Below are positions 1 through 59,512 of a stretch of 61,393 nucleotides of DNA, piece after piece. Position numbers and translations under genes: made by a program. How positions within the stretch are numbered: position 1 is the first letter of the stretch; the number at the start of each line of letters is the position of its first letter. Under the pieces are notes generated by a model. It did no database searches. It had not been told where the DNA came from and saw only the letters and a program-made list of their open reading frames with translations. Source of the stretch: Chiloscyllium plagiosum (taxonomy: Eukaryota); contig NC_057756.1 in assembly GCF_004010195.1 (NCBI RefSeq), positions 10,432,911 to 10,494,303 on the forward strand. The letters run 5' to 3'.

Positions 1-303
1 CCAGGGATGTGCAGGTTAGGGTGGATTGGCCATGGGAAATTGTCCCATAGTGTCCAGGGATGTGCAGGTTAGGGTGGATTGGCCATGGGAAATGGTCCCA
101 TAGTGCTCAGGGATGTGCAGGTTAGGGTGGATTGGCCATGGGAAATGGTCCCATCGTGTCCAGGGGATGTTCCGTTTACGTGTGTTTGCGCTGGGGAAAT
201 GCGAGGTTATGGGGTTGGGGCGTTTCTGGATGGGATACTGTTCAAAGTGTCAGTGTGGACATGATGGGGTGAATGGCCTGTTTCCACTCTGTAGGGATTC
301 TAT
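1..303 (+). mobile_element. HE1/V-SINE 3' part with an internal 53-bp tandem repeat (3 copies)
   Basis: gatgtgcaggttagggtggattggccatg units starting near 1, 54 and 107; tail ggcctgtttccactctgtagggattctatga. Confidence 0.8.
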
Positions 304-337: not shown

Positions 338-361
338 GGGATGAATTACCTCCCGGCTTGA
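338..361 (+). CDS. 24-nt micro-exon (G)DELPPGL
   Basis: ctcttccacag|GGGATGAATTACCTCCCGGCTTGA|gtaagt; TGAC branch-like A at -23. Confidence 0.8.
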   Translation, partial: GMNYLPA

Positions 362-3300
362 GTAAGTTTGGATTTATTCAGTCTCGCTGAAATTAGCTCC
401 CTAAGTTGAGCATTGTAAAGCAGCCCGAATCTGTAAACACAACTTCCCTTCTCTACATTATTCAAATACTCACCTCCACTCAATCATATGTCAGCAAATT
501 GCTTACTGCGTTGATTTTGCCTTTTTGATATTAATTATTTTCTTCCGACAAATGTCATAAAAATCTCTGCACCCCACTGAAGTAGCTTATGCTGTCGATC
601 AAGAAAAACTTTTAATGTTGAGATATTTGTATCTCACGCATTTCGAATTTAAGAACTGGGAGCAGGAACCCTACCCCTTACAGATTCCCCTCTGAGCCCC
701 TCACCATCCTGACTTGGAAAATATCACCGTTCCTTCAGTGCCGATGGGTCAGAATCCTAGAACTCCCTCCTGAAGGGTGTTTGTGGGTCTGTCTACAGCT
801 CACGGACTGCAGCAGTTCAAGAAGGCAGCTCACCCCAACTTCTCAAGGTGTAATTGGGGATGAACAACAAATTCTGGGCCCAGTCCGTGACACCCACATC
901 ATGTCGATGAATTTTACAAGAATTGATCACACTTACAGTCAGATGAATACATGGTGCAGAGGTGAACGTGTCGGGATCTGCACTGACTGTTCTGAAATAT
1001 TCAAATCCTATAGATCTTGTGTCACAAACATTAACATAAATTATTCTCTTTCACAGCAGGTGGAAAAACTGGGGGCAAAGGTAAATATTTTAACTCAGGT
1101 GTTTAATTCTGTTGAATTTTGATGTACATGCCTCATCATAAAGACTAATGATGGTCCCTTGAAGTTCAATTCTTTCCAATATCTCACGGTTCAATCATAT
1201 TGGTTTATACATTTATAACATCTTCATATGGAGCATGTAATATTCTCTGGTTAAGCACAGCAGGTCAGGCAGCATCCGTGGAGCAGGAGAATAGATGTTT
1301 TAGGCATAAACCTGATGAAGAGCTTATGCCCAAAATGTTGACTCTCCTGCTCCTGGGATTCTGCCTGACCTGCTGTGCTTTTCCAGCACCACGCTCTCAA
1401 CTCTGAGCCAGGTTCCTATCCACAGAGCAGGACGAGCAGCTGAACATTGGGAACGACACCATCAGTTCTGGCTCTCTCTCCCCTTATACGGGTCATTTCC
1501 TCTTGGAATGAGAGGCAGGGAGTGATTGAAAGAGATGGCTGAGGGTAGTACAGTTGGAAAAGGTTGGGAGGAGTGGAGGGGGGCAAGGTGCTCTGAGTGA
1601 GTGAGTAGGCAGAGTGGGGCTTGTCATGTGTAGTGGAGCGGTGTGGAGGTGCAGTCTTTGGTCTGGTGCCGGGGTGGGGAACCTGTGGCCCTTAGACCAT
1701 TGCGTGTGGCCTTTTGAATGAATCCAAATTTTGCAGAACAGATCTTTTATTTTTTATTAATATGGTTTTTCATTCTTTATTATTTTTATTTTAATCTTAA
1801 AATGAATGTGTTTAAAATGAGAGTAAAAAAAATTTCAACGAAATAATCCTCACAGACTGACCGCCACAATTAAAAAATTGGTAAGTCATAAGGGCTATTT
1901 CAACATCTGCTATGCTCATGATTTAGTTATAATGCAACTCTAGAATGTATGTTGTCTTCCCCGCCTGACTGGCGCCACTATTGCCTGAGGCTGGTTGGCG
2001 AGAGCCTGTGGGTATCCAGTATGCCAGTGTTTATCAACTTATGACAACAGTGCACATGGCTTTCCATTTGAAGTGAAATTTGGGAATAGTTACACAGTCT
2101 AACTGTATCAACATTTATATAATTGAAGTTTCTTGGATGCGTCCTCTCTCACAAGGATTTTAGTGAGTCCCTCTCTCAGCTCTCCTCCTCCCTCTACAAG
2201 GATCTCAGTGAGTCTCTCTCTCACTGCACTTCCCAGATCATCTACCAGCGCCCCTCCCCCAAATTTCCTCCCCACTGCCTTTTATCTCGGCCCGCTTGGC
2301 ACACCAGACTCATTCCTGAAGAAGGGCTTATGCCCGAAATGTCGATTCTCCTGCTCCTCGGATGCTGCCTGGCCTGCTGTGTTTTTCCAGCACCGCATTT
2401 TTTGGCTGTGGCCTTATTAGATAACAACTAACATAATGTGGTCTTCCAACATGAAAAGGTTCCTCACCTCTGGTCTGGTGAATGAGGGAATTAGTTACAT
2501 GAGACTCTGAGAAAGGCAGAGCACGGGCCTTGGTGGGATGGGTGTGAGAGATGGGGCGAGCGCGAGGTATCGTAGCACTGATAGTGGCACAGAGCGGCGA
2601 GGGTCATTGCCCTTCTTCCGAAAACGGCAGCCATTTCTCTGCAGTGTGAATATTGCACTGACCCAAGTGCCAACCTTGGACCAGAGTGGCAGGGTCTGTT
2701 GGTCTCATGGGCAGTGAGGGGGTCTCTCTCTCTCTCACCCTATCCACCCGGACCTGATTAATTTTGAAAGGAAGTAATGAAATCTGTAATCTGTTGATCA
2801 TTGTCGATGTATTCACTGTGGTATACTGTTCTATGTTCTACTTTCAATTAATTCTCCGGAGACAATGTTAACATGAGCTAATCTCTTCTATAGGAGGGCT
2901 GTTACGTCCCAGCTTCGGTGAGAATACCCACTCAAATTCTTCAATCCTGCTTGATATAATTCTTCAATTTGATTGTGATTCTGTTGTCACAGTCCATAAT
3001 CAAATGTCCTTTCATCAGAGTATTGCAGTACACACTACCATTCATTTGTGTGCTAAAGCACTGCTAAGTCTGTGAATTTTTAATATCGGTGAAGAAATAT
3101 TCTTCAAACAACTCCGTGCAAATCTCCTTAATATTGCTGAAAAACCCTGCATTGTGTGGAAACTTTTCATCTTGCATTCATCAGGATATTTTGCAAGAAA
3201 GCAATTTCAAGAGGAGGACCAACATTGGTTGGTTCAGTTGCAGATCCTGATTGATAGACGTATTGCCATGGACGCATGATTATTGGCAACTCAACAAATT

Positions 3301-6300
3301 CAACCAACCTTGAAAGATAGAGAATGCCTGTCAACCACTCTCCTGCAATGTTAATATTGGTTTTGTTCTCGAGTTTGCATTCTTGCAAAATGTCCAGATG
3401 AGTGCATCTTTTTTCAACAATATTCAGGTTTTGCGTCTACCCAATTACAATTTGCAAATCTCTTTGTTGCTGTGGAGAACCTGAAGCTGTTGATTTTAGG
3501 AAATACTTTAGTCAGAGAATTTACACAAATCAAATGTGAAACACCTCATAGAATTGGCAATGACATATTATTATGGGATATGAGTCCTTCAGAGTAGCCT
3601 CAGCTGGTGAGGGGAATTGAACTCACAATGCTGGCATCCCTCTATGTCGCAAACTAGGCATCTAACAAACTGCGTTGATTTAAAGTGTCAACGTTATTGA
3701 CAGTGCTGGAAATTAAGCCATTACTCCCGTGGACCTGATGTTATACCTGCTTGGAAAACAAAATGTTACTTTCAGCTGTGAGACTCAGAGATATTTTCCA
3801 AACAATGGTTGAGAGATGCATAAGTTGAGGTTGGATCAATAATTGTATTATTTTAATTAATCACAAATAATTAATTATGGATGTTTGAATTGTCGAATAT
3901 GTTAATAAAACTGAGAGCAAATATGTGACTGGTAAAACAAAAGAATGTAAATTAGATTATTAGGGCTCAAGTTATTTATAAAGGAAACACCCGCTTGTAA
4001 TTGATGCTGAACTGACTGTATGAATTGATACACTAGTTCTCTGGAAGTATATATTTCTTTCAATTGAATTGTCAATTTCCGGTGCCAGCAATGTTAACAT
4101 AAATCCATCTCTTCCACAGGAGGGAAAAGACCATCTAGATTGGGTAAATATATTTTGTTAGTTGTTTAGATGTCCTGATTTATGTACTGATCTTGTTTTG
4201 AGCATGATAAGGTAACCACAATCTGTCAAAACATATCCTTTCATTCCATCATTGTAATGTTCAATGATGTTCATTCATGTGTGAAAATATTATCAACTGT
4301 GTTAACATCAGTGAGGAAATAATACAATTATATCCTGCAGTTTGTGCCACTACAAATCTTGTATTTGACTCGACAGCCACCTGATGAGGGAGCAGCGCTT
4401 CGAAAGCTAGTGATTCCAATTAAACCTGTTGGACTATAATCTGGTGTTGTGTGATTTTTAACTTTGTACTTGACTCACAATTGTTGGTTTGGCAAATATT
4501 TTAATATACATTATTTTAATAAAATCATTTGAAACAAATTGCTGACAGTTATATACTTAGAGAATACATTCTCCAGTGGCAGTTTAGAGAGACATTAAAA
4601 ACTGTATGTCCAGTGGTTTAACCATTAAACAGATCTGAATCAAGATTTTAAAAATAGGGAACGTGATGACTTCTCCTGCCTTTTATTGAAGCAGAACAGG
4701 TTTGTATTCCCTGTCACACATTTCTGAACAGGGAACCTTCTCCTCGTTGTCTATCCTCTTAACATAACTGAAGGCATCGCTGACTATTAATAACTACATG
4801 TTGAATAGACTACGTCAGATGTTATTTCAACAACCACTCTCATTGCAACAAGAAACACAAGGGTTTCCTTTTCACAGCCATTAGGATGTGTTTAATGTAG
4901 ACAGAAATGAATTCTTGAAAAATAAATGGAACTGTTGAATGCAATGAGCAAGAATTCAAATGAGAATGATCGATTGTTTTAATCTATCAATATTGTTTGG
5001 TGTATTGAAAATTATTCTGCTGCGCCCTTTGCTCAGATGTTATATGTTAGAACGAAAGCAGAACTGAGAAATATTTACAGATAGACATTAGTTTGAGACC
5101 TTGATATGTAATCCAGAAAATGAATGGAAGGTGAATGTGATGAAGTAACAAGTGTGTCAGTTATGTTGATGAATATAAATTATCACCCATTCTGTCCAGT
5201 ATTGCTGCATGTGTCAGGGCTCTGCATTGATTATGTTAAAATCTCCAATTCCAATTGATCCCTGTCAAGGGTAGTGACACCAATCTATTCATTCCACAGG
5301 AACTGGGAAATTTCCTAGACCCGGTAAGTATTTTATTTCATGACCTGAATTCTGCTCAATTGTGTTACATATGCTTCACTGTAAATTATAATGGCAGTGA
5401 TTCCAAGGGACATTAATGTTCACAATTTCTGATGAAGCCGCTCATCAAATGTGAAGTTTTATGTCACTCCCCTGCCCTGATGTGTCATCATGAACCAGAT
5501 CCCAATCAGGATTGATGACCTGTTAACATGATTACTGTTCTCTCATATTGTCTTCAAACATTGAACTTTTTAGCTCAGCTCAAAAGTGACTGAATAAGTC
5601 CCTTGAGCTCCTTAATTCTCAATTGTCTAACAGAATTAATGATATCTCTGACCCATCATAGCTATTGGCTGACTGCATCAGATATGACTGGTGTTAATTT
5701 AATACTTGCTGTCATTCCTGAATGAATGTCAAGAGTTATCCTTTCAAAGCCCAACATGGAGTGTTTAATATAACCATTAATGAGGGTGATTCTTTTAAAA
5801 GGAACTATTGCATGAAACAAAGTGCAATTTAATTCAGTCGGATCATTTTAATCTGCCAATATTATTTGGTTGTTTAGACACCACATTGGGGGCCATTCAG
5901 TTCCATTGACTGGATAGTTGCATTGTAGTGCAGAGTAATGCTAACAGCGCTGGTTCAATCCCTACCCTGGCTGGGGTCACCATGGAGGTCCCATTGTTTA
6001 ACCTCTCCAGCTGCCTGAGGGATTGTGACCGTACAACACTAGTTAGTTCTCTGTCCCAATCTCTGTCTAATGATAGAGTAGCCCGATGACCCTCTGGGGC
6101 AGTAGTGACTTCACTCCCTTTGAACAGGTGCAGTGAGTTATATAGTAAAAGTGTCTGATACGTATTTGCTGATAGTCTTTGGTTTGAGACCATGATATAC
6201 AATCCAGAAAATGAATGAAAGCTAAATATGATAAAGTAAAAAGTGTATCGGTTCTGATATTGAATAAAATGATCACACATGCAGTCTAGGATTGCTGAAT

Positions 6301-9300
6301 GTGTCAGGGCTCTGCATTGATTCTGTTAAAGTCCGCAAATCCTGCAGGATATGAGCACCAATCTATACATTCCACAGGGGTTCAGAGATCTCCTGTACCT
6401 GATCACTGTTTCAATTCTATGACACCAAATTTGCACAGTTTTGTCATATCACTGTACATTCTAAAGGCAGTAATTCCAAGGGACAGAAATGTTCGCAAAA
6501 CCCCAGCACAATTCAATTATCTTGATCATCCCATAGCTCATTCCCATTCATTTTCTGTGTTAGAAATAGATAAGTGTCTGCTTATTATGTCTTAAATATT
6601 AATGAAATGAATTAATATCGAGTGGGCATATTTGTGGTACCCAAAACTGTCATTCTAAAACATCTATGCATTCAATGAATTCATTTTATGACATCTAAAT
6701 AGATCATTCTGAATTACAATATATGTCGTAAAATGAATCTAATCACTCAAGATTACATTTAATCCCAAGAAGTGACTTAATGTATTGACCTGTCCTGCTC
6801 TGAGGTGACTGTTAACCAGGACACAGTCAATATCTATTGTATAATACAATAGCTATTCATTCACATATGGTAGCTGAACACTAAAAATGTATTAATTGTG
6901 ATGCAGGCTTTAAGGTAGGGAGAGAGATTTTTTACAGGAGCTGATTAATCCTTTTTTTCCTCATTTAAAAGCTTTGGAAACATCCGGTATCCCTATGCAA
7001 TGCTGTCTCCAGGTTTTATTTCATTTGGATCATGTCAATCAATGCAACAATTGTGTTGACATACCTGTCTTTAATTAATGTTTCAATTTCCAATGGACAC
7101 AATGTTAATACAGATCCTCTCTCCCACAAATGCATTCATAACATGCGATTCTTTCGCTTGACAGTGATAATTCCATTCCAATCTCTGAACAAATATCACA
7201 TCAATACACCTTTGCAATATTGATTGTCATTCATTCCTGTGTTTCAACACTATTTACTGTGTACATTTCCTACTGGGAAGGAAGTGATTAAACCAATTAT
7301 ACCATTCTCTTGGTAAGTATCTTAACTCCACCTGGAAAGCAAAAACTGGTCGTTTTGGCAAATTGTTTCGTTCAGAGAATTTCTGTCCCACATTTTTGCA
7401 TAGTTTGTTCAACAACATGAATTTGGAGTGTCACTTTGTGTGGACTGTTTGACTTGAGGGAAAGGTGAAATTGTTCATCAAATTTGAAATGCTATGTTCC
7501 TCTCCTGCCCTGAGGTGTGATCACTAAACAAATCCCAATTAGATTTAAAACATGAGAGATTTAAAATAAAAGCTGAGAGAGGCCAATATCCCATCACCAA
7601 GTTACCCTTTATTTACATGTGCACAGTACATGGGCTCTGACAAGCCAGCTCAGAGCCACTGGCTAGAATTAGGAGAGTCTCTGAATCCCCTGTTTTTTTT
7701 AATATATTAACCCCCACACTACCACCTAAGTGCGGTAGTGCTTATTTTTTCCTCAGCACCCATGGTGTGTGTGTGCAGGTGTGAGACACAGTGAAAGTCA
7801 CAAAGTGCACAAATCTTTATTCAATTTCCACCACCAGGAAGATAGGAAAACACCCGGGTGGCCAGTGACAAACACTGCCCTTCACATCAGAGGGCAATGC
7901 TGTGTGATCAAAACAGTGAAGGGGAGGGGAGGGACTAAATCAAAATAAATCCCCTGTTTATATCTGTCAGTGTGGGTTACCTGATTGAACAGTTTAACGA
8001 GCCCAATCAAGAGTCTCATAGTTAATGAGATCAATTTGGCCTTCTAGCCAACCACTATAGATTGTCTTCAGATATTTACCATCTGTAAGTTGTGTCATAC
8101 ATGACTAAAAATATACCAAAGTGTTGCCTGAGCTCCTTAGGCATCTACCCTCTAACAGAGCTAAATGTATTTCTGGCCCTTAATAGTTATTGGCTGAACA
8201 CATCAAATGTGACTGATGTTAATTTAACAGTGGCCATCATTCTAAAGGATTCAACAAGGATTTTCTGCTCACAGTTAATAGGAAGTGTTAATAAAGACAG
8301 AAACGAGGCTAATTTTTCAAAATGGAACTGTTGAATGCAATGACGGTGGCTCAGTGGTTAGCACTGCTGCCTCACAGCGCCAGGGACGCATGTTCGATTC
8401 CAGCCTCGGGTGACTGTCTGTGTGGAGTTTGCACATTCTCCCCGTGTCTGCGTGGGTTTCCTCCGGGTGCTCCGGTTTCCTCCCACAGTCCAAAGATGTG
8501 CAGGTCAGGTGAATTGACCATGCTAAATTACCCATAGTCTTAAGTGCATTAGTCAGAGGAAATGGGTCTGGGTGGTTTACTCTTCGGAGGGTCGGTGTTG
8601 ACTTGTTGGGCAGAAGGGCCTGTTTACACACAGTTGGGAATCTTATCTAAAGACGGAAAAGTCAATCTATGATGTATCATTTTAATCAGTAAATATCATT
8701 TGACGTATTGGCTATTATGGAGTTCCATTCTTTGAACAGGTATCATATGTTAGAAGAAAAAGAATTGACTGATCAAAATTTACTAGTAGCCTTCAGCTTG
8801 AGACCTTGATATATAATCGGGAAAATCATTGAAGATGAATTTGATGAGGTAACAAGTGTATCAGATACATTGTTGAATTAAGTTATCACATCACACGATA
8901 TTATTGAATGTGCCAGACTCTGCATTAATTCTGTTATAATACCCAAATTCAATTGTTCCCTAAAGAGGATATTAACCCAAACCTGTTCATTCCACAGGAG
9001 CTGGACTATCTCCAGGACCTGGTAATTATTTTATTCATGACCTGATTGTTGCTCAATTATTTGTTTAATGTTTAATTCTAAATTATAATGGCTGTAATTC
9101 TCAGGGACAGAAATGTTCACAAAACCCCAGCACACTCAAATGATGTAGACCATTCCCAGTCCATTGACATCATTTGCATGTGTTAAGAATTATGTAAGTA
9201 ACACTTTATTATATCCTAAATATTAACCAAAATAATTAGCACATTGACACAAATATACAGTATCCAAATTGTAGTTCTATGAATTGAATGAACTAATTTT

Positions 9301-12300
9301 ATTATATTTTAATAGACTATGCAGAATTACCACATGCATTGCAAATGAATTTGGTTACAAAAGATTAAATTTAATCCCAAAAATTGACTGAACATCTAAA
9401 TGTTTCTGTTGTGCCCTGAGGTGTGATTGTTAACCAGATCACTGTCAACATCTATTGTATAACACAATAACTGTTCATTCGTATGTGGGATGAACATTCG
9501 AACGGTATTAGTTATGATCCAGGTTTTTGGGCAGCGACAGAATTTTTGCAGGAACTGATTTATCTGCATTTTCCGAATTAAAAAGCATTGGAAACATCTG
9601 GTATCCCTCTGAAATGTTGCTTCCAGATTTGACTTCATATCACACCAGTCAATGCAGCAATTATGTCGATGCATCTATTTTTAATTAATGTTTCAATTTT
9701 CAATCTGAACACAAATCCTTCTCTCTCCCAAGAGTGACAATACCTTCTGCTTTGAGTAATATCCATTCATTTTCTCCATTCAGGACATGGGATTCTCAGT
9801 TTGAATATCATGCCAATCTGTGAACAAATATCACTCAGTACATCATTGAAAAACTGAATGCCATTCATTCCTGTATTCCAGCACCATAAACTGTGTGCAT
9901 TTCCTGTTGTCAACACTGGGGAAGGAAACACTTCCACCATTTATTTTGGCAAGAATCTTAAGACAAAGGCTTTATTCTACCCAAGGGGCTGCACAGTGGC
10001 TCAGTGGTTAGCATTGCTGCTTCATGGCGCCAGGTACCCAGGTTTGATTCCCGCCTTGGGTGACTGTCTGTGTGGAGTTTGCACATTCTCCCTGTATCTG
10101 CGTGGGTTTCCTCCCACAATCCAAAGATGTGCTGGTCAGGTGAATTGGCCATGCTAAATTGTCCCATTGGTGCATTAGTCAGGAGTAAATGTAAGGTGGG
10201 GAAATAGGTCTGGGTGGGTTGCTCTTCGGAGGGTCAGTGTGGACTGGTTGGGCCAAATGGCCTGTTTCCATACTGTAGGGCATCTAATCTAAAAACTGCT
10301 TATTTCAGGAAATCTTTTAATTCAGAAAAAATGGCTGCCAACAAATTTGCACAGTTCATTCTCCAGTGAAAAGTATGAGTGTCTCTTTGCGTGGACACAT
10401 TGATTAGATTAGATTACATTACATTACAGTGTGGAAACAGGCCCTTCGGCCCAACAAGTCCACACCGACCCGCCGAAGCGCAACCCACCCATACCCCTAC
10501 ATTTACCCTTTACCTAACACTACGGGCAACTTAGCATGGCCAATTCACCTGACCTGCACATCTTTGGACTGTGGGAGGAAACCGGAGCACCCGGAGGAAA
10601 CCCACGCAGACCCGGGGAGAACGTGCAAACTCCACACAGTCAGTTGCCTGAGGCGGGAGTTGAACCCGGGTCTCTGGCGCTGTGAGGCAGCAGTGCTAAC
10701 CACTGTGCCACCGTGCCGCCCGCTATGTGTTGATATGAAGGAAAGTTGAAATTGTTCATCACATTTAAAATTACATGTTATACCCCTGCCCTGAGGTGAT
10801 CAATAGCCAGAACCCAATTAGGATTGACAATCTGTTAATGTGTTTACTGTTCTCTGCCACTGTCTTCAGACATTTATCATCCATAGATCATGTTGTACAT
10901 GACTAAACATGTAAAGACGTGTTCCCGAAACTCCTTAGTCGCTACCCTCTAAAAGAACTATATCTCTGGTCCTTAAGAATGACTGGCTAATCACATCAAA
11001 TGCAGCTAATGTTAATTTAATAATGACTATCATTCCTATGTGAAGAACAAGGAATTCCTGCTCAGAGTTAATAGGAAGAGTTAATGAAGACAGGAATGGA
11101 GCTGAGTTTTCAAAATGGAACTGTTTAATGCAATGAGGGAGAATGAATCTATTTTTAATCTTAATCGGTCAATATCATTGTGTGTATCATTGCTATCATG
11201 AGGCTCCATCCTTTGTTCAGGTGTAATAAGCTGAAGGAAAATAGCTTGAGAACTTTATTTATAGTCCAGAAAAAAGAATGAAAGATGAAAGTAATGAATT
11301 TTGTGCAATTCTGGTCTTCTGCTATGTATTGCAAAGGAATCTTTTCACAAAAGATTAAATTTAATCCCCACAGTGATTTAACAGATAAATGTTTTTGTCA
11401 TGCCCTGGGGTGATTATTAACCTGACCACAGTCAACATCTATTGTATCACGCAATAACTGTTCATTCGTGTGGGCGATAAACACTGGAAATGCATTAGTT
11501 ATGATCCAGGCTTTTGGGAAGGGAGAGAATTTTTACAGGTACTGGTCAATCTGCATATTCCTAATTGAAAATAATTTGAAACATCAGATATCTCTATGAA
11601 GTGCTGCCCCCAGGTTTTCCTTCATTCAGATCATGTCAATCAATGGAGCAATTGTGTTGACATATTGGTTTTTAATTAATGTTTCAATTTTCACATGACA
11701 CAATGTTACCACAAATCCTTCTCTCTCCCATGACTGCATTCAGAACACGAGATTCTTTAGTTTGAACATGACAATTGCATCTCAATCTGTGAACAAATAT
11801 CACATCAGTACATCATTACAGTATTAATTGCCATTTATTTCTGTGTTCCAACATAATTAATTGTGTGCAGTTCATGTTGTCAAAGCTAGTAAGGAAGCAG
11901 TTACAACTCTTTCTTGGCAAAAATCTCAAGACAAGTGTCTTAATTTCAATCAAGATTTAGAAACTGTTCATTTTGGCAAATTTGTTTCCTTCTGAAAATT
12001 GTGTGCCTCACATATTTGCATAGTTCATTCAAAAATATGAATTAAGAGTTTCACTCTGTGTGGGCGCATTGATTTACAGGAAGGGTGAAATTGTTCATCA
12101 AATTTGAAATTATATGTTATGTTATATGTTATATGTTACTCCCCTGTGTGCTCATCAGCCAGATCCCAAATAGGATCGGAGACCTGCTAAAGTGATTAAA
12201 AACTGAGAGAAGTGTGGATGCTGTTTGTCAGAAACAGAAACAGAAGTTGCTGGAAAAGCTCAGCAGGTCTGGTAGCATCTGTGATTCCTGAAAAAGGGCT

Positions 12301-48300: not shown

Positions 48301-51300
48301 TCTATAAACACAGAAGACAATATCATGAATTATGCTGAATCTTAATACACCCGTGACACTAATTATGTTGACATGATGTGCAAAAAAATACATTCACTCC
48401 TCACTCTTATCCCAGGAGAAGCTGAATATCACAGTCTTAGTACATTTCTAACTGTTGAGTAAATGCCATTGAACAGCAGAATGATTCAGTGAAGGGATTC
48501 TCTGTTCCAATTTTTATCTACCTTCCATCATTTTTTGCAATTAACCATTATGCATTACAATTAAACAAAATTAGTTTTCCAAAGTAAAATGTTTACCATG
48601 ACCAGTCGATTTACCAGCTCCTGTTGAAGACATAGATCTGTGTTCGCGTTCTCTCCACAAAATCAATTAAAAAATCACATTTTGATAGGAATTGCAAAGT
48701 GAACGACATATTCAGCACTGCAAGTGTTACCAACAAAATCAACTTGCAATAAGTACTCACTGCCACTAATCAGATTGAGCAATTGACCATCAGCAAAATA
48801 GTTAATGATTGTTTCTAAGAAAGAGCAGTTTTCCAGACTGGATAACAATGTATTTGCATGATGATGGGTAAATTGCAATTGTCTTCAATATCATTTAGCG
48901 ATAGCCTGACAGGGTTTTTTTGTGGGGATGTCTTTGAGAGCAATCTGGTAAGTGAGCACACCTCAAGATAGAAACAACTTGTACTTTCTGTGCGAGTGTT
49001 TGGGTGATTGGTTCTACTTTTCAAAAAAAAATGTATACATTCAAAGCGCAATTGGCCACTCACTCTTGGGGAACTGATGACCATGTGAGTCATAAAGTTC
49101 TCAGAAAAAATGATTCATGAGTAAATGTCAGTGAGCTGTGTGACAGTGTCATAAAGTCAGAGCTGTGCGATGAAGATCTCTTATTGGCTTTGATCTTTCT
49201 GAGCAGACAGATGTAATAAAGAGAATTCAATTAAATACGTGGAGCCAATCATACTCACCATATGCGGAAACTGCAGCAGTTCCTGGGGAACAAATAGACT
49301 GGTGTGAACAAAGTGTGAATGAAATATGATTACACATTCCGACCCAGATTGTGGTGGGCACTTGGAGCAACCAGTACCTAATCAATTGGACCATTTGTTT
49401 CAAACTCAATTCCACTTCTCATCGCTAATACATTGACAAAGTCAAACACTCCCAGGAGCACTTTCTTCTCTAAGCCATTTCAGTTCAGCTGAGTGAGCAG
49501 CTTAATTCAAGAAATGTCATGGTTTCTGGAAAAACATGGAATAACTGTTTTATACTCTGCTTTTAAGCTTTCGGTACATTCCTCATCTTATAAAGTGCTC
49601 ACTTGTCTGCACAAAATGTCTCTTCCAGGAGAAGTTCTCTTTGTCAGTGTAATGCCAATATATGGTCAAGAATTAGAGTACATGTGGGTTAATACTGTTT
49701 CTTTACACAAATAGATTTTACAGGCCATTATAAGGACAATCAGCAAATTGAGAAATTGCTGGGAAAACTCAGCAGGTCTGGCGGCATCTGTGGAGAGAAA
49801 TCAGAGTTAATGTTTCAGATCCAGTGACCCTTCCTCAGAACTGAACAAGACAATTAAGCATTATCAGGTCAAAGGCAATTAGTGAGTTCACATAAAAATA
49901 TCACCCTGCTGAGTGATGCACATGATCACATATGCGTCTTAAAAAGTAATTTCAAATGCAAGATGATGTAATTTAGTGTCGAGTAGATCAATCCTGATTG
50001 TGGCCTGGTCATCAAACACACCTCAGGGCAGGACGGAATCATTTACATTGTGAATGACTATAGAAAGTGTTTGGTTTTCCACTCTTTTTGAACAACTCTA
50101 TTGAAAATAAATTACAGAAGCAAATCTAAAACAAACGCATAGTGCACTGAGTTATGAGCTTAGTGAATATTTTTAAAAAGTATACAACATATGCAATTTG
50201 ACCACTACCAAGCCACTAAATGATTCAGAGCTGAAAAATGTGTTGCTGGAAAAGTGCAGCAGGTCAGGCAGCATCCAAGGAGCAGGAGAATCGACGTTTC
50301 GGGCATAAGCCCTTCTTCAGGAATGAGGAAGGTGTGCCAAGCGGGCTGAGATAAAAGGTAGGGAGGAGGGACTTGGAGGAGGGCCTCTCCCAAGTCTCTC
50401 CTCCCTATCTTTTATCTTAGCCTACATAGCACACCTTCCTCATTCCTGAAGAAGGGCTTATGCCCGAAACGTTGATTCTCCTGCTCCTTGGATGCTGCCT
50501 GACCTGCTGCGCTTTTCCAGCAACACATTTTCAGCTCTGATCTCCAGCATCTGCAGTCCTCACTTTCTCCTACTAAATGATTCAGGTTAACATAGGAACA
50601 GGATTAGGCCATTCAGCCCCTCAGCCTGTTCCAATGTTCAATGAGATCACAGCTGATCGGTGGACTCACTCCATATAGGAGAAAGTGAGGACTGCAGATG
50701 CTGGAGATCAGAGTTGGGAAGTGTGGTGCTGGAAAAGCATAACCGTTCAGGCAGCATCCGAGGAGCAGGAGAATTGATGTTTCAAGCATTAGCTTCCTGC
50801 TGAAGAGCCTATGCTTGAAACGTTGACTCTCTTGCTCCTCAGATGCTGTCTGACCAGGCTGTGCTTTTCCAACACCACACTCTCCAGCTCTCATTCCATT
50901 TACCTGCCATTGCCCCATATCCCTTAATAACTTCGCTTAACAAAAATGTACCTATCTCAGATGTAAAATTAACAACGGATCCAGCATCCACTGCTGATGG
51001 ATAAACGTATGGATGATAATGGAATTGTCTTGGTTAGATGGGTTTCAGACTGGGGTCTGTTATTGTGCTGTAATGTTCTGTGTTCTATATCGTTTGGGTG
51101 TAGAAGTGCTTCCTAACATCTCTCTTAAATGGTCTGGCCCAAATCCTCAAACTATGCCCCCTAGATCTAGACACCCAGCCAGTGGGAGTAGTTTATCTTT
51201 ATCTACCGAGTTCTTGTTAATACCTTGAGTGTTTTGATCAGGTTACCCCTTAACTTCCTACATTCTAGAGGAAACAGGCCAACTTTGCATATTATTTCCT

Positions 51301-57300: not shown

Positions 57301-57400
57301 TATGATGACTGAAATGTAATAACACGGATATGTTGCCGAGACATGGAATATTTACACAAAGCTAACTTTCCCGCAGGGGATGGGAAAGTTTCTAGCGATA
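338..57400 (+). CDS. Partial multi-exon gene made of tandem 24-nt phase-1 micro-exons encoding a Gly/Pro/Lys-rich 8-residue repeat protein (unidentified; extends beyond the window)
   Basis: 24 segments of exactly 24 nt flanked by pyrimidine-rich ...YAG and GT, plus one with a GC donor. Phase-1 frame open in all, while phases 0 and 2 contain stops. Spliced peptide: xDELPPGL-TGGKTGGK-GGLLRPSF-GGKRPSRL-GTGKFPRP-GAGLSPGP-GVGKSPGL-GAGKIPGP-GSQKFPAP-RVGKVPGT-GVIIPPAL-GAGKFPGP-GVGKFPGT-GVIIPPPL-(GGQKFPGP)-GIGKVPGT-GVIIPPPL-GAGKFPGP-GGQKFPAS-GAGKVPGT-GMIIPPPL-EVQKSPGH-GGGKDTAY-GEAEYHSL-RDGKVSSD. Confidence 0.8.
683..912 (+). mobile_element. LINE 3' end fragment (same family as 36874-37436)
   Basis: caccatcctgacttggaaa...gcagttcaagaaggcagctcacc...gtgacacccacatc matches the reverse complement of 36895-37090. 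Confidence 0.6.
1057..1080 (+). CDS. 24-nt micro-exon (T)GGKTGGK
   Basis: ctctttcacag|CAGGTGGAAAAACTGGGGGCAAAG|gtaaat; TAAC at -23; NAGNAG acceptor. Confidence 0.78.
1253..1406. mobile_element. Penelope-like (Neptune-type) pLTR inverted pair
   Basis: gcacagcaggtcaggcagcatcc ... ctgcctgacctgctgtgc around cctgatgaagagcttatgccc. Confidence 0.7.
2132..2403 (+). mobile_element. Penelope-like 3' fragment with pLTR and hammerhead motif
   Basis: cCTGAAGAagggcttatgcccGAAAtgtcgattctcctgctcctcggatgctgcc. Confidence 0.7.
2894..2917 (+). CDS. 24-nt micro-exon (G)GLLRPSF
   Basis: ctcttctatag|GAGGGCTGTTACGTCCCAGCTTCG|gtgaga; TAAC at -23; upstream gacaatgttaac homologous to D-type exons. Confidence 0.78.
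4120..4143 (+). CDS. 24-nt micro-exon (G)GKRPSRL
   Basis: ctcttccacag|GAGGGAAAAGACCATCTAGATTGG|gtaaat; TAAC at -23. Confidence 0.78.
4372..4468 (+). mobile_element. Penelope-like pLTR, family 2, with minimal hammerhead
   Basis: cacCTGATGAgggagcagcgcttcGAAAgctagtg...aaacctgttggactataatctggtgttgtgtgattttt. Confidence 0.7.
5300..5323 (+). CDS. 24-nt micro-exon (G)TGKFPRP
   Basis: cattccacag|GAACTGGGAAATTTCCTAGACCCG|gtaagt. Confidence 0.8.
6378..6401 (+). pseudogene. Dead micro-exon copy (G)VQRSPVP, donor lost
   Basis: ttccacag|GGGTTCAGAGATCTCCTGTACCTG|atcact: GT replaced by AT. Confidence 0.65.
7562..8059 (-). mobile_element. Solo-LTR-like element (same family as 16485-16708), interrupted by a retroposon
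   Basis: atcccatcaccaagttaccctttatttacatgtgcacagtaca...agccagctcagag is the reverse complement of the 16485 element. Confidence 0.65.
7696..7947 (-). mobile_element. Short poly(A)-tailed retroposon with 12-bp TSD
   Basis: aatcccctgttt at 7684-7695 and 7948-7959; T-run at left end. Confidence 0.65.
8341..8650 (+). mobile_element. HE1 SINE (tRNA-derived V-SINE)
   Basis: A box gtggctcagtggttagc, B box gttcgattcc, V-domain tgtggagtttgcacattctccccgtgtctgcgtgggtttcctccggg, CR1-like tail. Confidence 0.9.
8998..9021 (+). CDS. 24-nt micro-exon (G)AGLSPGP
   Basis: cattccacag|GAGCTGGACTATCTCCAGGACCTG|gtaatt. Confidence 0.75.
9732..9755 (+). pseudogene. Dead D-type micro-exon copy (acceptor damaged)
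   Basis: ctctcccaa GAGTGACAATACCTTCTGCTTTGA gtaata versus intact ctcccacag GAGTGATAATACCTCCCCCCTTGG gtaaat; the remaining AAG acceptor would give 23 nt. Confidence 0.6.
9985..10291 (+). mobile_element. HE1 SINE
   Basis: Same A/B boxes, V-domain and tctaa tail. Confidence 0.9.
10402..10721 (-). mobile_element. HE1 SINE (young)
   Basis: Reverse complement of HE1 with (ttaga)n tail at left. Confidence 0.9.
12185..12432. mobile_element. Nested Penelope-like pLTR fragments
   Basis: gctggaaaagctcagcaggtctgg...cctgaaaaagggcttatgcccgaaacgtcg...ccagtgatccttcctcaga. Confidence 0.55.
12682..13014 (-). mobile_element. HE1 SINE
   Basis: Reverse complement of HE1 with internal duplication of the ggccaat...acctgcaca segment. 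Confidence 0.88.
13421..13444 (+). CDS. 24-nt micro-exon (G)VGKSPGL
   Basis: tattccacag|GGGTTGGGAAATCTCCTGGACTGG|gtaatt. Confidence 0.75.
14198..14398. mobile_element. Penelope-like pLTR inverted pair
   Basis: cagcaggtcaggcagcatc...tcgacgtttcgggcaaaagcc / cctgatgagcttttgcccgaaacatcg...ctgcctgacctg. Confidence 0.7.
14476..14495 (+). pseudogene. Dead D-type micro-exon remnant
   Basis: ctctccccctgGTGATAATACCCCTGCTGG|gtaaat: acceptor AG lost, exon shortened. Confidence 0.55.
15171..15194 (+). CDS. Micro-exon A1 (G)AGKIPGP
   Basis: caatccacag|GAGCTGGGAAAATTCCTGGACCTG|gtaatt; TAAC at -23. Confidence 0.75.
15493..15516 (+). CDS. Micro-exon B1 (G)SQKFPAP, weak donor
   Basis: caatccacag|GAAGTCAGAAATTTCCTGCACCTA|gtcatt (non-consensus +3 C). 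Confidence 0.45.
16140..17140 (+). mobile_element. Composite CR1/HER1 remnant in cassette 1 (B-C intron)
   Basis: RT C-terminal peptide LLRPLLGNCTQFRSP...KLERVQKRLTR; nested opposite-strand CR1 tail and solo LTR. Confidence 0.8.
16485..16708 (+). mobile_element. Solo LTR (~224 bp) with 5-bp TSD AGAAC
   Basis: agaac|TGttgtg...ttaattCA|agaac; internal ccaat, cataaa (TATA-like) and agtaaa. Confidence 0.75.
17208..17231 (+). CDS. Micro-exon C1 (G/R)VGKVPGT
   Basis: cactccacag|GAGTTGGGAAGGTTCCTGGAACAG|gtattt. Confidence 0.75.
17963..17986 (+). CDS. Micro-exon D1 (G)VIIPPAL
   Basis: tctccaacag|GAGTGATAATACCTCCCGCCTTGG|gtaaat. Confidence 0.72.
18840..19299 (-). mobile_element. Young CR1/HER1 LINE 3' fragment
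   Basis: ORF SLEFRRLRGDLIETYKIIHGL...FFSQRVVGLWNSLP; (taagacca)n tail; private to one cassette junction. Confidence 0.9.
19499..19522 (+). CDS. Micro-exon A2 (G)AGKFPGP
   Basis: caatcagcag|GAGCTGGGAAATTTCCTGGACCTG|gtaatt; NAGNAG acceptor. Confidence 0.7.
19821..19843 (+). pseudogene. Dead micro-exon B2 (donor deleted)
   Basis: ccacag|GAGGTCAGAAATTTCCTGGACCT then taattca; the Ggtaattatt segment seen in other copies is missing. Confidence 0.7.
19961..20200. mobile_element. Penelope-like family 2 pLTR inverted pair with hammerhead motifs
   Basis: aaaaatcacgcaacaccaggttatagtc...ctccttcatcagg / CTGATGAaggagcagtgctccGAAAgctagtg...actataacctggtgttgtgtgattttt. Confidence 0.75.
20404..20724 (+). 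mobile_element. HE1 SINE
   Basis: Full-length HE1 motifs; private to cassette 2. Confidence 0.9.
21050..22415 (+). mobile_element. Composite CR1 remnant in cassette 2 including solo LTR 21743-21960
   Basis: Homologous to 16140-17140; TGtagtg...ttatttCA. Confidence 0.8.
22485..22508 (+). CDS. Micro-exon C2 (G)VGKFPGT
   Basis: cattccacag|GAGTTGGGAAGTTTCCTGGAACAG|gtattt. Confidence 0.75.
23217..23240 (+). CDS. Micro-exon D2 (G)VIIPPPL
   Basis: ctcccacag|GAGTGATAATACCTCCCCCCTTGG|gtaaat. Confidence 0.72.
24320..24343 (+). pseudogene. Dead micro-exon A3 (acceptor CAG>CAA)
   Basis: ttccacaa|GAGCTGGGAAATTTCCTGGACCTG|gtgttt; acceptor mutated and donor weakened. Confidence 0.65.
24641..24664 (+). 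CDS. Micro-exon B3 (G)GQKFPGP with GC donor (may be dead)
   Basis: ctttccacag|GAGGTCAGAAATTTCCTGGACCTG|gcaatt. Confidence 0.35.
24793..25437. mobile_element. Penelope family 2 pLTR pair with nested Poseidon-type Penelope 3' fragment (24893-25330)
   Basis: Same insertion site as 19961; nested GIY-YIG C-terminal coding text (HFDWDNTSILGQAKQ...EFLEAWHS). Confidence 0.75.
25960..27280 (+). mobile_element. Composite CR1 remnant in cassette 3 including solo LTR 26645-26868
   Basis: ORF YCTQFWSPH...KLERVQKR...RRLRGDLIEVYK; LTR followed by agaac. Confidence 0.8.
27347..27370 (+). CDS. Micro-exon C3 (G)IGKVPGT
   Basis: cactccacag|GGATTGGGAAGGTTCCTGGAACAG|gtattt. Confidence 0.75.
28114..28137 (+). 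CDS. Micro-exon D3 (G)VIIPPPL
   Basis: ctcccacag|GAGTGATAATACCTCCCCCCTTGG|gtaaat. Confidence 0.72.
28306..28510 (+). mobile_element. 5'-truncated HE1 SINE (with N gap)
   Basis: cagtggttagcactgttgcc...(aatct)n tail; flanked by ctacactattaa repeats. Confidence 0.85.
29418..29441 (+). CDS. Micro-exon A4 (G)AGKFPGP
   Basis: caatcagcag|GAGCTGGGAAATTTCCTGGACCTG|gtaatt; NAGNAG acceptor. Confidence 0.7.
29739..29762 (+). CDS. Micro-exon B4 (G)GQKFPAS
   Basis: ctttccacag|GAGGTCAGAAATTTCCTGCATCCG|gtaatt. Confidence 0.72.
30296..32658. mobile_element. Penelope-like element (Poseidon-type), rearranged: two minus-strand 3' ends plus a plus-strand RT/GIY-YIG part
   Basis: GIY-YIG motif YVGQTGRKLATRIHEH; RT motifs YKQTNGTPMGSPLSG, YVDD, LAFLDV, YRKPT; flanked by ataaatgtt duplication; stops and deletions present. 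Confidence 0.9.
32880..33942 (+). mobile_element. Composite CR1 remnant in cassette 4 (solo LTR deleted; extra minus-strand CR1 at 33344-33752)
   Basis: Homologous to the other B-C introns; (catagagt)n tail of the nested copy. Confidence 0.8.
34012..34035 (+). CDS. Micro-exon C4 (G)AGKVPGT
   Basis: cactccacag|GGGCTGGGAAGGTTCCTGGAACAG|gtattt. Confidence 0.75.
34808..34831 (+). CDS. Micro-exon D4 (G)MIIPPPL
   Basis: tcttccacag|GAATGATAATACCTCCCCCCTTGG|gtaaat. Confidence 0.72.
35955..36182. mobile_element. Penelope-like pLTR inverted pair
   Basis: gattagagtggtgctggaaaagcacagcagttcaggcag ... ctgcctgaactgctgtgcttttccaccatcactctaatc; flanked by agtaagtgtatca duplication. Confidence 0.75.
36330..36353 (+). 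CDS. 24-nt micro-exon (E)VQKSPGH
   Basis: cattccacag|AAGTTCAGAAGTCTCCTGGCCATG|gtaatg. Confidence 0.7.
36874..37436 (-). mobile_element. LINE 3' fragment (CR1/L2-group, distinct from HER1)
   Basis: Frameshifted RT C-terminal peptides YKARVR..REYSPL, YKMHCRNSLKILRQHLPNPR; T-run at left end. Confidence 0.65.
37660..38110 (+). mobile_element. CR1/HER1 3' fragment
   Basis: ggagggtttgagctataaggagaggctggatagg...aatgagctgccagaggaagtggtggaggc. Confidence 0.85.
38464..38487 (+). CDS. 24-nt micro-exon (G)GGKDTAY
   Basis: ctaacccaattctttctactcctcag|GAGGTGGAAAAGATACTGCTTATG|gtacat; CTAAC at -23; resembles the exon at 1057. Confidence 0.72.
38790..43387 (-). mobile_element. Decayed L1 (LINE-1) element, near full length, with gaps
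   Basis: ORF1-like LGLPEREE...PRPVLFQLQSYKERQ; APE motifs SWNVKG, LQETH, GGDFN, RIDMFF, SDH; LPISWLGRIALIK, GGLDFPDF; C-terminal CPKC...LLHCLWTC; poly(A) at 38790-38803. Confidence 0.9.
39959..40096. mobile_element. Penelope family 2 inverted-pair fragment inserted into the L1, 14-bp TSD
   Basis: caaatttctgatgt at 39945-39958 and 40097-40110. Confidence 0.8.
43888..44625 (-). mobile_element. CR1-type ORF2 endonuclease-region fragment interrupted by a Penelope pLTR (44167-44352)
   Basis: Peptide KVFNWGRGNYTAIRQ...INWKQLF...EPWMT; pLTR with tcgacgtttcgggtataagcccttcttcagg. Confidence 0.65.
44865..45672 (+). mobile_element. Nested CR1/HER1 3' fragments
   Basis: QLERIQKGFTRML; ESRTKGHRFKVRGERYKRDLRANFFTQRVVRVWNELP; ctctatgactct tail. 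Confidence 0.85.
46285..46905 (-). mobile_element. CR1/HER1 3' fragment
   Basis: LYKTLLQPHLEYCVQFWSP...LFSLERRRLSGDLIDTYK; (tagaaca)n tail. Confidence 0.9.
46980..48135 (+). mobile_element. Two CR1/HER1 3' fragments (46980-47468, 47650-48135)
   Basis: ggagagggtgcagaagaggtttaccaggatg; LEGLSYKERLVRLGL; ctatgttcta and ctatgactctatga tails. Confidence 0.8.
48416..48439 (+). CDS. Candidate 24-nt micro-exon (G)EAEYHSL
   Basis: cactcttatcccag|GAGAAGCTGAATATCACAGTCTTA|gtacat; same length and phase, unique flanks, weak donor. Confidence 0.5.
50228..50890. mobile_element. Two Penelope-like pLTR inverted pairs (50228-50571, 50677-50890)
   Basis: Long palindrome centred near 50385 with hammerhead motifs on both strands. 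Confidence 0.8.
51615..52790. mobile_element. CR1/HER1 fragments (+ strand 3' part, then - strand RT domain)
   Basis: Minus-strand GKSCLTNLMEFF...VDIVY...AFHKV...GVPLGSIMGPL; LYRTLVGLILEYCVQF. Confidence 0.85.
52998..53208. mobile_element. Young palindromic Penelope pLTR insertion with 9-bp TSD, inside a CR1 fragment
   Basis: 83-bp arms 53038-53120 and 53126-53208 with one mismatch; actgagatt at 52989-52997 and 53209-53217. Confidence 0.85.
53605..54440 (-). mobile_element. Neptune-type Penelope element 3' part (GIY-YIG plus pLTR)
   Basis: Frameshifted peptides CCRKRCKT...FSCILSHLIYCVCC, YIGET, FKSSSHS...MQILGL...RLGTLQPHEINADF, followed by pLTR with hammerhead core. Confidence 0.8.
54830..57303 (-). 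mobile_element. Cluster of CR1/HER1 3' fragments spanning an N gap
   Basis: (catagagt)n tails at 54831 and 55277; FESVQKRFTRMLPGLEGLSYRERLNRLGL. Confidence 0.85.
57377..57400 (+). CDS. Candidate 24-nt micro-exon (R/G)DGKVSSD
   Basis: gctaactttcccgcag|GGGATGGGAAAGTTTCTAGCGATA|gtaaac; GK at positions 3-4 as in the array. Confidence 0.6.
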
Positions 57401-59440: not shown

Positions 59441-59512
59441 CTCATGGTGGTGTAGTGGTGAGCATAGCTGCCTTCCAAGCAATTGACCCGGGTTTGATTT
59501 CCGGCCATCGCA
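59441..59512 (+). pseudogene. tRNA-Gly(TCC) pseudogene
   Basis: tggtggtgtagtggtgagcatagctgccTTCCAAgcaattgacccgggtttgatttccggccatcgca closely follows vertebrate tRNA-Gly-TCC. Acceptor stem 5' end, anticodon stem and T-loop (TTTGA) are mutated. TTTT follows at 59518-59521. Confidence 0.85.

Follow-up and report, generated by a model that had tools for sequence, protein, structure and literature searches.

The question raised by this locus is whether a long run of 24-nt segments, each preceded by AG and followed by a donor-like dinucleotide, represents the micro-exons of a repeat-protein gene in a shark genome. The window, i.e. the whole stretch of 61,393 nt that was analysed (G000:C47:10432911-10494303), belongs to an assembly of 3.56 Gb in 101,977 contigs and contains five N gaps. 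Together with 100 kb on each side, it forms the examined region of 261 kb, about 12% of which is N.

A mechanical scan of the window for YAG + 24 nt + GTRA returned 29 matches on the plus strand, against a mean of about 12.5 and a maximum of 21 for the other 51 lengths (L = 9 to 60). On the minus strand the 19 matches at L = 24 were unremarkable. Obviously related flanks identified 17 of the 29 as family copies, so that the remaining 12 correspond to the background level. An nhmmer profile was then used, built from 17 seeds, each an exon with its 40 upstream and 30 downstream nt. With a cut-off of E<0.01 it detected 31 copies in the window, 29 on the plus strand and 2 on the minus strand. In 26 of them (24 on plus, 2 on minus) the exon is exactly 24 nt long and still follows an AG, with GT or GC as its donor; five copies were decayed. 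The plus-strand family exons include 23 with a GT donor and one with a GC donor, at 24641; the 97%-identical unplaced contig C58916 displays GT at that place. A unit of four exons, about 5 kb long, occurs four times in the stretch from 15 to 35 kb, one A copy and one B copy being dead. Its consensus is AGKFPGP (A), GQKFPGP (B), VGKVPGT (C) and VIIPPPL (D). The features of the window are as follows, with conceptual peptides.

338..361, plus: 24-nt micro-exon, DELPPGL, old D-like copy, between ttccacag and gtaagt (nhmmer E=3.5e-16)
1057..1080, plus: 24-nt micro-exon, GGKTGGK, between tttcacag and gtaaat (E=7.1e-16)
2894..2917, plus: 24-nt micro-exon, GLLRPSF, with an exact copy in an inverted paralogue
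4120..4143, plus: 24-nt micro-exon, GKRPSRL (profile)
5300..5323, plus: 24-nt micro-exon, TGKFPRP (profile)
6344..6412, plus: decayed copy that has lost its donor GT (CCTG then atcact) but keeps the acceptor and 24-nt body
7094..7128, plus: D-type acceptor-flank remnant lacking the exon body (E=0.29)
8998..9021, plus: 24-nt micro-exon, AGLSPGP (profile)
9703..9780, plus: decayed D-type copy, acceptor changed, the sole usable AG giving a 23-nt exon
11698..11725, plus: D-type acceptor-flank remnant lacking the exon body (E=3.5)
13421..13444, plus: 24-nt micro-exon, VGKSPGL (E=6.6e-24)
14477..14519, plus: decayed D-type copy lacking the 5' half and acceptor
15171..15194, plus: unit 1 A exon, AGKIPGP
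15493..15516, plus: unit 1 B exon, SQKFPAP, weak donor gtcatt
17208..17231, plus: unit 1 C exon, VGKVPGT
17963..17986, plus: unit 1 D exon, VIIPPAL (hydrophobic)
19499..19522, plus: unit 2 A exon, AGKFPGP
19788..19842, plus: dead B copy of unit 2, its donor region deleted
22485..22508, plus: unit 2 C exon, VGKFPGT
23217..23240, plus: unit 2 D exon, VIIPPPL
24281..24371, plus: dead A copy of unit 3, with AA in place of the acceptor AG, the shifted AG giving 23 nt
24641..24664, plus: unit 3 B exon, GQKFPGP, GC donor
27347..27370, plus: unit 3 C exon, IGKVPGT
28114..28137, plus: unit 3 D exon, VIIPPPL
29418..29441, plus: unit 4 A exon, AGKFPGP
29739..29762, plus: unit 4 B exon, GQKFPAS
34012..34035, plus: unit 4 C exon, AGKVPGT
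34808..34831, plus: unit 4 D exon, MIIPPPL
36330..36353, plus: 24-nt micro-exon, VQKSPGH, starting with AA, which makes the junction codon Glu
38464..38487, plus: 24-nt micro-exon, GGKDTAY, final plus-strand copy ahead of the assembly gaps (profile)
48416..48439, plus: chance-like AG..GT 24-mer outside the family
48597..48620, minus: 24-nt family exon, AGKSTGH, in a contig bounded by the N gaps 43388-43887 and 55910-56903
49259..49282, minus: 24-nt family exon, TAAVSAY
57377..57400, plus: 24-nt family exon, DGKVSSD, with A as its last base, on a short contig flanked by N gaps

The first-pass annotation of this DNA had counted 24 AG..GT segments plus one with a GC donor. This count could be reproduced when 48416 was included; that segment, however, falls outside the family, as it was matched neither by the whole-exon profile nor by the acceptor and donor profiles. 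It is probably one of the roughly 12 chance 24-mers, and the true family copies of the contig holding it lie on the opposite strand. The 24 family exons of the plus strand stood, but the earlier inventory had omitted the two minus-strand exons, the five decayed copies and the two remnants. In the 100 kb on each side of the window the profile detected just two further copies, one on the plus strand near -3415 and one on the minus strand near 65680. Separate acceptor-side and donor-side profiles revealed, in the 261 kb, no exon that has these flanks but a different length. Past 43 kb the strand orientation of the copies is mixed. The three opposite-strand family copies in or near the window lie in gap-bounded contigs and could reflect mis-oriented contigs or a convergent paralogue.

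In the 26-row alignment of the splice-site-bearing copies the exon columns were ungapped, all 26 exons being exactly 24 nt long. The least variable columns upstream were TAACA at -25..-21 (pi 0.08-0.40) and AATC at -18..-15 (pi 0.21-0.22), and further positions of low variation were T at -12, TCCACAG at -7..-1 and G at exon +1. On the donor side GTAAnTAT was conserved, the T at intron position +8 being invariant. Mean pi was 0.334 for the upstream 30 nt vs 0.459 for the exon, whose first and last bases were among the least variable columns. The conserved module thus consists of a branch-point-like TTAACA, a pyrimidine tract, CAG/G and G/GTAAnTAT, and the conserved part measures about 90 nt made of splice-signal positions. 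Splice-site strength was found to be uneven, with the GC donor at 24641, the gtcatt donor at 15493 and cagcag acceptors. The old diverged copies (338, 1057, 2894, 4120, 5300, 8998, 13421, 36330 and 38464) keep the 24 nt, the AG, the GT and the branch-point motif, and their exon bodies share few bases.

With respect to the reading frame, offset 2 (2 nt + 7 codons + 1 nt, phase 1:1) was open in all 24 plus-strand exons and in both minus-strand copies. The stops reported earlier were recovered exactly: at offset 0 in 338 and in the four D exons, at offset 1 in 338, 4120, 5300, 57377 and 48416, and none in the frame then called phase 1, which is offset 2 here. The junction codon, split G/GA or G/GG, was Gly (GGA or GGG) in 20 of 23 cases. 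When each of the 22 distinct plus-strand exons was shuffled, any shared open frame appeared in 3 of 20000 trials, a test that overstates independence since the copies are paralogues. The stops in the two other frames represent about five independent events, and the open frame alone is therefore weak evidence. Codon-position periodicity was absent (pi 0.456, 0.478 and 0.442 for positions 1, 2 and 3 in 26 exons), and no purifying selection on particular residues was visible across the old copies. The earlier argument that the conserved frame reflects selection on coding is weakened by this missing periodicity and by the small number of stop events. The conceptual product of the 24 plus-strand exons has 191 residues, with 53 Gly (28%), 36 Pro (19%) and 18 Lys (9%), and contains no Cys, Trp or Asn. 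It displays a period of eight residues, Gly occupying the first, third and seventh place of each repeat.

A genome search with the acceptor-flank consensus, allowing 2 mismatches, gave 58 matches vs 3 for the reversed control; a narrower second pattern gave 33 vs 0. The matches outside the window are located at C47:10285529 and 10296186 (minus strand, about 147 and 137 kb upstream), at C48:4349371-4359875 (six matches about 2 kb apart, plus one at 4417239), at C48:7999166-8041257 (minus strand, at least 15 matches, 0.5 to 12 kb apart), at C7:41738913 and on about ten unplaced contigs. The array at C48:7999166-8041257 is probably the largest of the family. The window array is one member of a multi-locus family, a point that the first-pass annotation had missed. 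Exons outside the window were taken from twelve loci of 2-3 kb, some of which lie in the following two arrays.

C48:4347871-4359229 (L031, L044-L047), minus: tandem array of ~2-kb units with one 21-nt phase-1:1 exon each
C47:10284029-10297712 (L028, L036), minus: inverted paralogue, ~135-147 kb upstream, with 18-nt (G)VAKPP exons and the copy of exon 2894; the unplaced contig C87923 (L033) is near-identical to it

The 12 readable exons measure 18 nt (3), 21 nt (7) or 24 nt (2), all multiples of 3, and every one begins and ends with G and is open in the same phase as the window exons. The seven 21-nt exons read (G)YGPGHG and variants, those of the first array being (G)YGPGHG, YRGEHG, YGPRHG, YGPGYG and YRHGHG; the three 18-nt exons read (G)VAKPP, one pair being probably allelic. 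The two 24-nt exons are (G)KSGYGDY, the sole exon read at C48:7999166-8041257 (L032), and the copy of exon 2894, which sits in an 84%-identical segment. Some of the other arrays encode Gly/Tyr/His-rich repeats.

The divergence of exons and flanks was compared at three places. In the four recent units the A and D exons showed 9/288 pairwise differences vs 86/699 in the ±30-nt flanks and are 3 to 5 times less diverged than the immediate flanks, whereas the B and C exons diverged as fast as theirs; for all four exon types together the values were 37/573 vs 137/1249. Since pairwise counts are not independent, Fisher-test P values are indicative only. Exon 2894 is identical (24/24) in the inverted paralogue at C47:10.285 Mb, about 147 kb upstream, where the surrounding 949 nt are 83.9% identical. 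The tandem array at C48 4.35 Mb behaved in the opposite way: its 21-nt exon showed 33/210 pairwise differences vs 350/7934 in about 850 nt of flanking intron, which makes it about 4 times more variable than the introns, with zero indels among the five exons. By our own reading of these five sequences, 8 of the exon changes are non-synonymous and 1 is synonymous. Neutral decay would not leave an exon several times as variable as the introns around it.

These rates bear on the idea that the array is a non-coding tandem or dispersed repeat, for example a transposon-derived one, in which the AG..GT spacing and the frame are incidental. The array introns are full of transposon fragments, and the module recurs at many loci and on unplaced contigs, both of which speak for such a repeat. 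Yet what is conserved is just the stretch of splice-signal positions; the lengths are 18, 21 and 24 nt only (12/12 exons outside and 26/26 in the window); and the copies are spaced irregularly, at 0.3 to 6 kb, with unrelated intervening sequence in the old part of the array. In addition, exons diverge at rates significantly different from those of their flanks, faster at one locus and slower at another, which is unlike neutral repeats. We regard this explanation as very improbable.

According to a second explanation, the array is dying or dead. It would then be a non-expressed segmental duplicate, its exons looking intact because of recent duplication, and the module would have worked once or would work at another family locus. 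The loss of a splice site or of part of the exon in 5 of the 31 copies, the death of all four D-type copies at 7-15 kb, the lack of codon periodicity and the flank-like evolution of the B and C exons are in its favour, as are the mixed strands past 43 kb. It is harder to reconcile with the slower divergence of the A and D exons, with old diverged copies that keep 24 nt, AG, GT and the branch-point motif, and with an exon 2894 that is unchanged between paralogues 16% diverged around it. Such a fate for the array is unlikely, at something like one chance in several.

The ends of the putative gene were sought in the flanks. A crude scan of 60 kb upstream, about 14 kb of it N, yielded no signal-peptide exon, with one poor candidate at -59932. 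No longer Gly/Pro-rich exon was found in the 261 kb (about 12% N), where a crude ORF scan gave two irrelevant matches. The extension both ways that the first-pass annotation had proposed, made here over 100 kb on each side, brought two more family copies but no first or last exon, neither in the window nor in the flanks, by profiles and ORF scans in the 261 kb of which about 12% is N. Neither a LIM nor a kinase domain was present among the 150 longest of 712 ORFs in the 261 kb, a weak test because the exons are short. These 150 ORFs contained transposon domains plus one Tectonin and one CNTF-like domain only. The Tectonin-domain ORF (E=7.9e-43; L024:5426-5929, plus strand) lies about 65 kb downstream of the window, and the ORF with the weak CNTF-family match (E=1.4e-5; L026:6819-7463, minus strand) about 87 kb downstream.

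As protein probes, unspliced read-through ORFs of 47 and 67 residues containing a D exon or exon 2894 were compared with a collection of 5.8 billion clusters, and among longer proteins no relative sharing three words or scoring E<=10 was found with these queries. This is weak evidence that the gene may be absent from public protein sets. The lack of a match to the two read-through probes, like the start and terminal exons that were not found, also fits a dead array. In the literature searched there was no description of a gene with 24-nt exons and an 8-residue repeat, of its peptide motifs, or of shark micro-exon genes.

A third explanation takes the 24-mers as real exons that serve a larger conventional gene as alternative cassettes or in mutually exclusive fashion. 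The rest of that gene would lie in gaps or beyond the 261 kb, and few of the 24-mers would be used per message. Phase 1:1 symmetry permits any subset, the splice sites are uneven in strength (GC, gtcatt, cagcag), N makes up about 12% of the 261 kb, and passages of PMC4350168 describe schistosome MEG transcripts as diversified likewise. Against this stand, though not decisively, the coherent product with its 8-residue period and the duplication of four-exon units as blocks, and no flanking conventional exon was detected in the 261 kb. A role as optional exons of this kind is quite improbable in our judgement.

Several other elements were observed in the region. A 53-nt tandem repeat (3.2 copies, 94% matches) occupies window positions 1-170, right after an N gap. 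The sole Rfam match, a tRNA-like one of 35.4 bits at 59444-59508 of the window (plus strand), is probably the tRNA-derived head of a SINE. LINE reverse-transcriptase/endonuclease fragments were found at 31420-32091 (plus) and 41524-41925 (minus) of the window and at L015:1068-4433 (minus). An element of about 90 nt, with inverted copies and 91-95% identity between loci, occurs at window positions 4377-4470 and 39957-40098 and at L036:351-544, and may be a small retroposon. Both strands of L025:694-3583 contain open frames of 364-476 residues with low-complexity Pfam noise only, probably a simple or satellite-like repeat.

On this evidence the window may well hold most of a tandem array of genuine coding micro-exons, from a family of structural genes that resemble elastin and the MEGs, a reading to which we assign a probability of about 60%. 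The symmetric coding repeat-protein gene postulated at first pass is partly supported, by the 24-nt length, the splice signals, the Gly junctions, the exon and flank rates and the sister exons in multiples of 3, and less by the frame argument on which it had leaned. Counting against the reading of the array as coding micro-exons are the 5 dead copies among 31, the GC and gtcatt donors, the 2-3 non-Gly junctions and the three opposite-strand copies.

A mechanism can be proposed for such a gene. All copies would descend from one ancestral module composed of branch point, pyrimidine tract, CAG, exon and GTAAnTAT, and the array would have grown by unequal crossing-over, with the ~5-kb four-exon unit as its latest amplification. 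This unit would combine three Lys-bearing exons (x-G/Q-K-F/V-P-G/A-x) with one hydrophobic exon, VIIPPPL. Each exon is predicted to open on the second and third bases of one codon and to close on the first base of another. Phase 1:1 together with a near-constant Gly junction means that exons can be gained, lost or skipped in any number with the frame intact, and such frame-neutral loss fits the five copies with a lost splice site beside intact neighbours. The intronic splicing code would be constrained, and the exon bodies would be constrained mainly in length, phase and composition. The predicted product, whose splicing, expression, secretion, cross-linking and tissue we infer, would be a disordered repeat of Gly, Pro and Lys in which every fourth exon contributes a hydrophobic patch. 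Its composition suggests an intrinsically disordered, probably secreted, cross-linkable matrix or structural protein. The gene itself would be a member of a shark family of arrays with 18-, 21- and 24-nt exons.

A wider proposal is made tentatively, at clearly less than even odds. The arrays could form an undescribed multi-locus shark micro-exon gene family in which each array arose from one ~90-nt module, amplified into phase-1:1 exons of uniform length (18, 21 or 24 nt), and the products are elastomer-like, of Gly/Pro/Lys or Gly/Tyr/His type. Its exons would diversify, with positive selection in at least one array, under a constant intronic splicing code, and the number and choice of exons would tune the material, in a vertebrate counterpart of the schistosome MEGs.

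If the array is spliced as predicted, it forms a gene liable to escape standard predictors and short-read aligners, with sister arrays elsewhere in the genome, and its product would be a structural protein class not described in vertebrates. The mechanism, if true, would offer a natural example of repeat proteins being built by tandem duplication of a symmetric exon with its splice signals. It would also exemplify exon birth and death with the frame kept and selection that differs between exon bodies and intronic splice signals. If the gene is already annotated in public shark gene sets, it would be a striking but ordinary repeat-protein gene.

Among known structural proteins, several candidates were set aside. 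A collagen triple helix was rejected, as Gly-X-Y is absent and the period of the array is 8 residues. Shark egg-capsule proteins were not retained as relatives, the source passages naming collagen only, and Calymmin was dropped as a lead. Lamprin of lamprey cartilage has GGLGY-type repeats, which the sister-array repeats (G)YGPGHG, (G)YGYGYG and (G)KSGYGDY presumably resemble in composition; we take this as a lead only. Their Gly/Tyr composition also resembles, by description, the tyrosine-rich non-collagen part of elastoidin mentioned in passages of PMC13120675 and PMC6497306. The actinodins, tyrosine-rich elastoidin proteins, have repeats described in their C-terminal part (passages of PMC13120675), but actinodin and elastoidin were dropped as leads, the source passages containing nothing on micro-exon arrays.

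Two of the parallels drawn at first pass, those with Schistosoma MEGs and with tropoelastin, proved to be the nearest architectural analogue and the nearest known design, respectively. Passages of PMC4350168 describe Schistosoma MEGs as built, over most of the coding region, from tiny symmetrical exons, as grouped into families and clusters where transposons abound, and as fast-evolving in their coding parts. The same passages describe transcripts diversified by alternative splicing and products, each with a signal peptide, whose secretion takes place at the host interface, and report MEGs as restricted to platyhelminths. The visible part of the shark array similarly contains only 24-nt symmetric exons, membership of a gene family and a setting rich in transposons are shared as well, and fast exon evolution is paralleled by the 21-nt exon of the C48 array. 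In contrast, MEG exons vary in length and sequence within a gene, whereas in each shark array a single length and a single module recur, together with the flanks. The array moreover belongs to the shark lineage, is not a sequence relative of MEG-1 to MEG-25, has no signal peptide that was found and stands in a non-parasitic context. By this comparison the Schistosoma MEGs are an analogue of the array in architecture and exon evolution, and the array is not a member of them.

In the tropoelastins of all species every exon is phase 1:1 and the split codon is usually Gly, as stated in passages of bioRxiv 10.1101/2024.12.03.626628. The ray eln gene has 70 exons, including many copies of 36- and 48-nt exons, and in tropoelastin hydrophobic domains alternate with Lys cross-linking domains of KA/KP type with paired Lys (passages of PMC12733013). 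Small symmetric exon arrays of matrix proteins thus have a precedent in cartilaginous fish. The window array is likewise composed of phase 1:1 exons with a Gly split codon (24 exons, 20/23 Gly), was amplified by tandem exon duplication and would specify a Gly/Pro-rich low-complexity product in which hydrophobic and Lys-bearing pieces alternate. Its x-G-K-V-P-G-x style resembles what we take to be the Lys-Pro cross-linking regions of tropoelastin. The differences are equally evident. The array exons are uniformly 24 nt, below any eln exon named in the source passages; there is a single Lys per 8 residues, with no Lys pairs, poly-Ala or KAAK, and Lys exons outnumber the hydrophobic exon (VIIPPPL) three to one. 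At the array no long hydrophobic domain, basic Cys-pair C-terminus or signal-peptide exon was found, and eln is a single gene in sharks and rays, whereas the array module is present at several loci. ELN adjoins LIMK1. Crude scans of the 261 kb, about 12% of it N, turned up neither paired-Lys KA/KP motifs nor a long hydrophobic domain, a C-terminal Cys pair or an adjoining LIM kinase, and the module is not single-copy; the array is therefore not filed as a tropoelastin. Tropoelastin first appears in cartilaginous fish and its ancestor is not known, as passages of bioRxiv 10.1101/2024.12.03.626628 put it. A shark family with the same phase and a similar style therefore bears on the question of elastin origin and, if the multi-locus family is real, could offer a window on how elastin-type genes arose.
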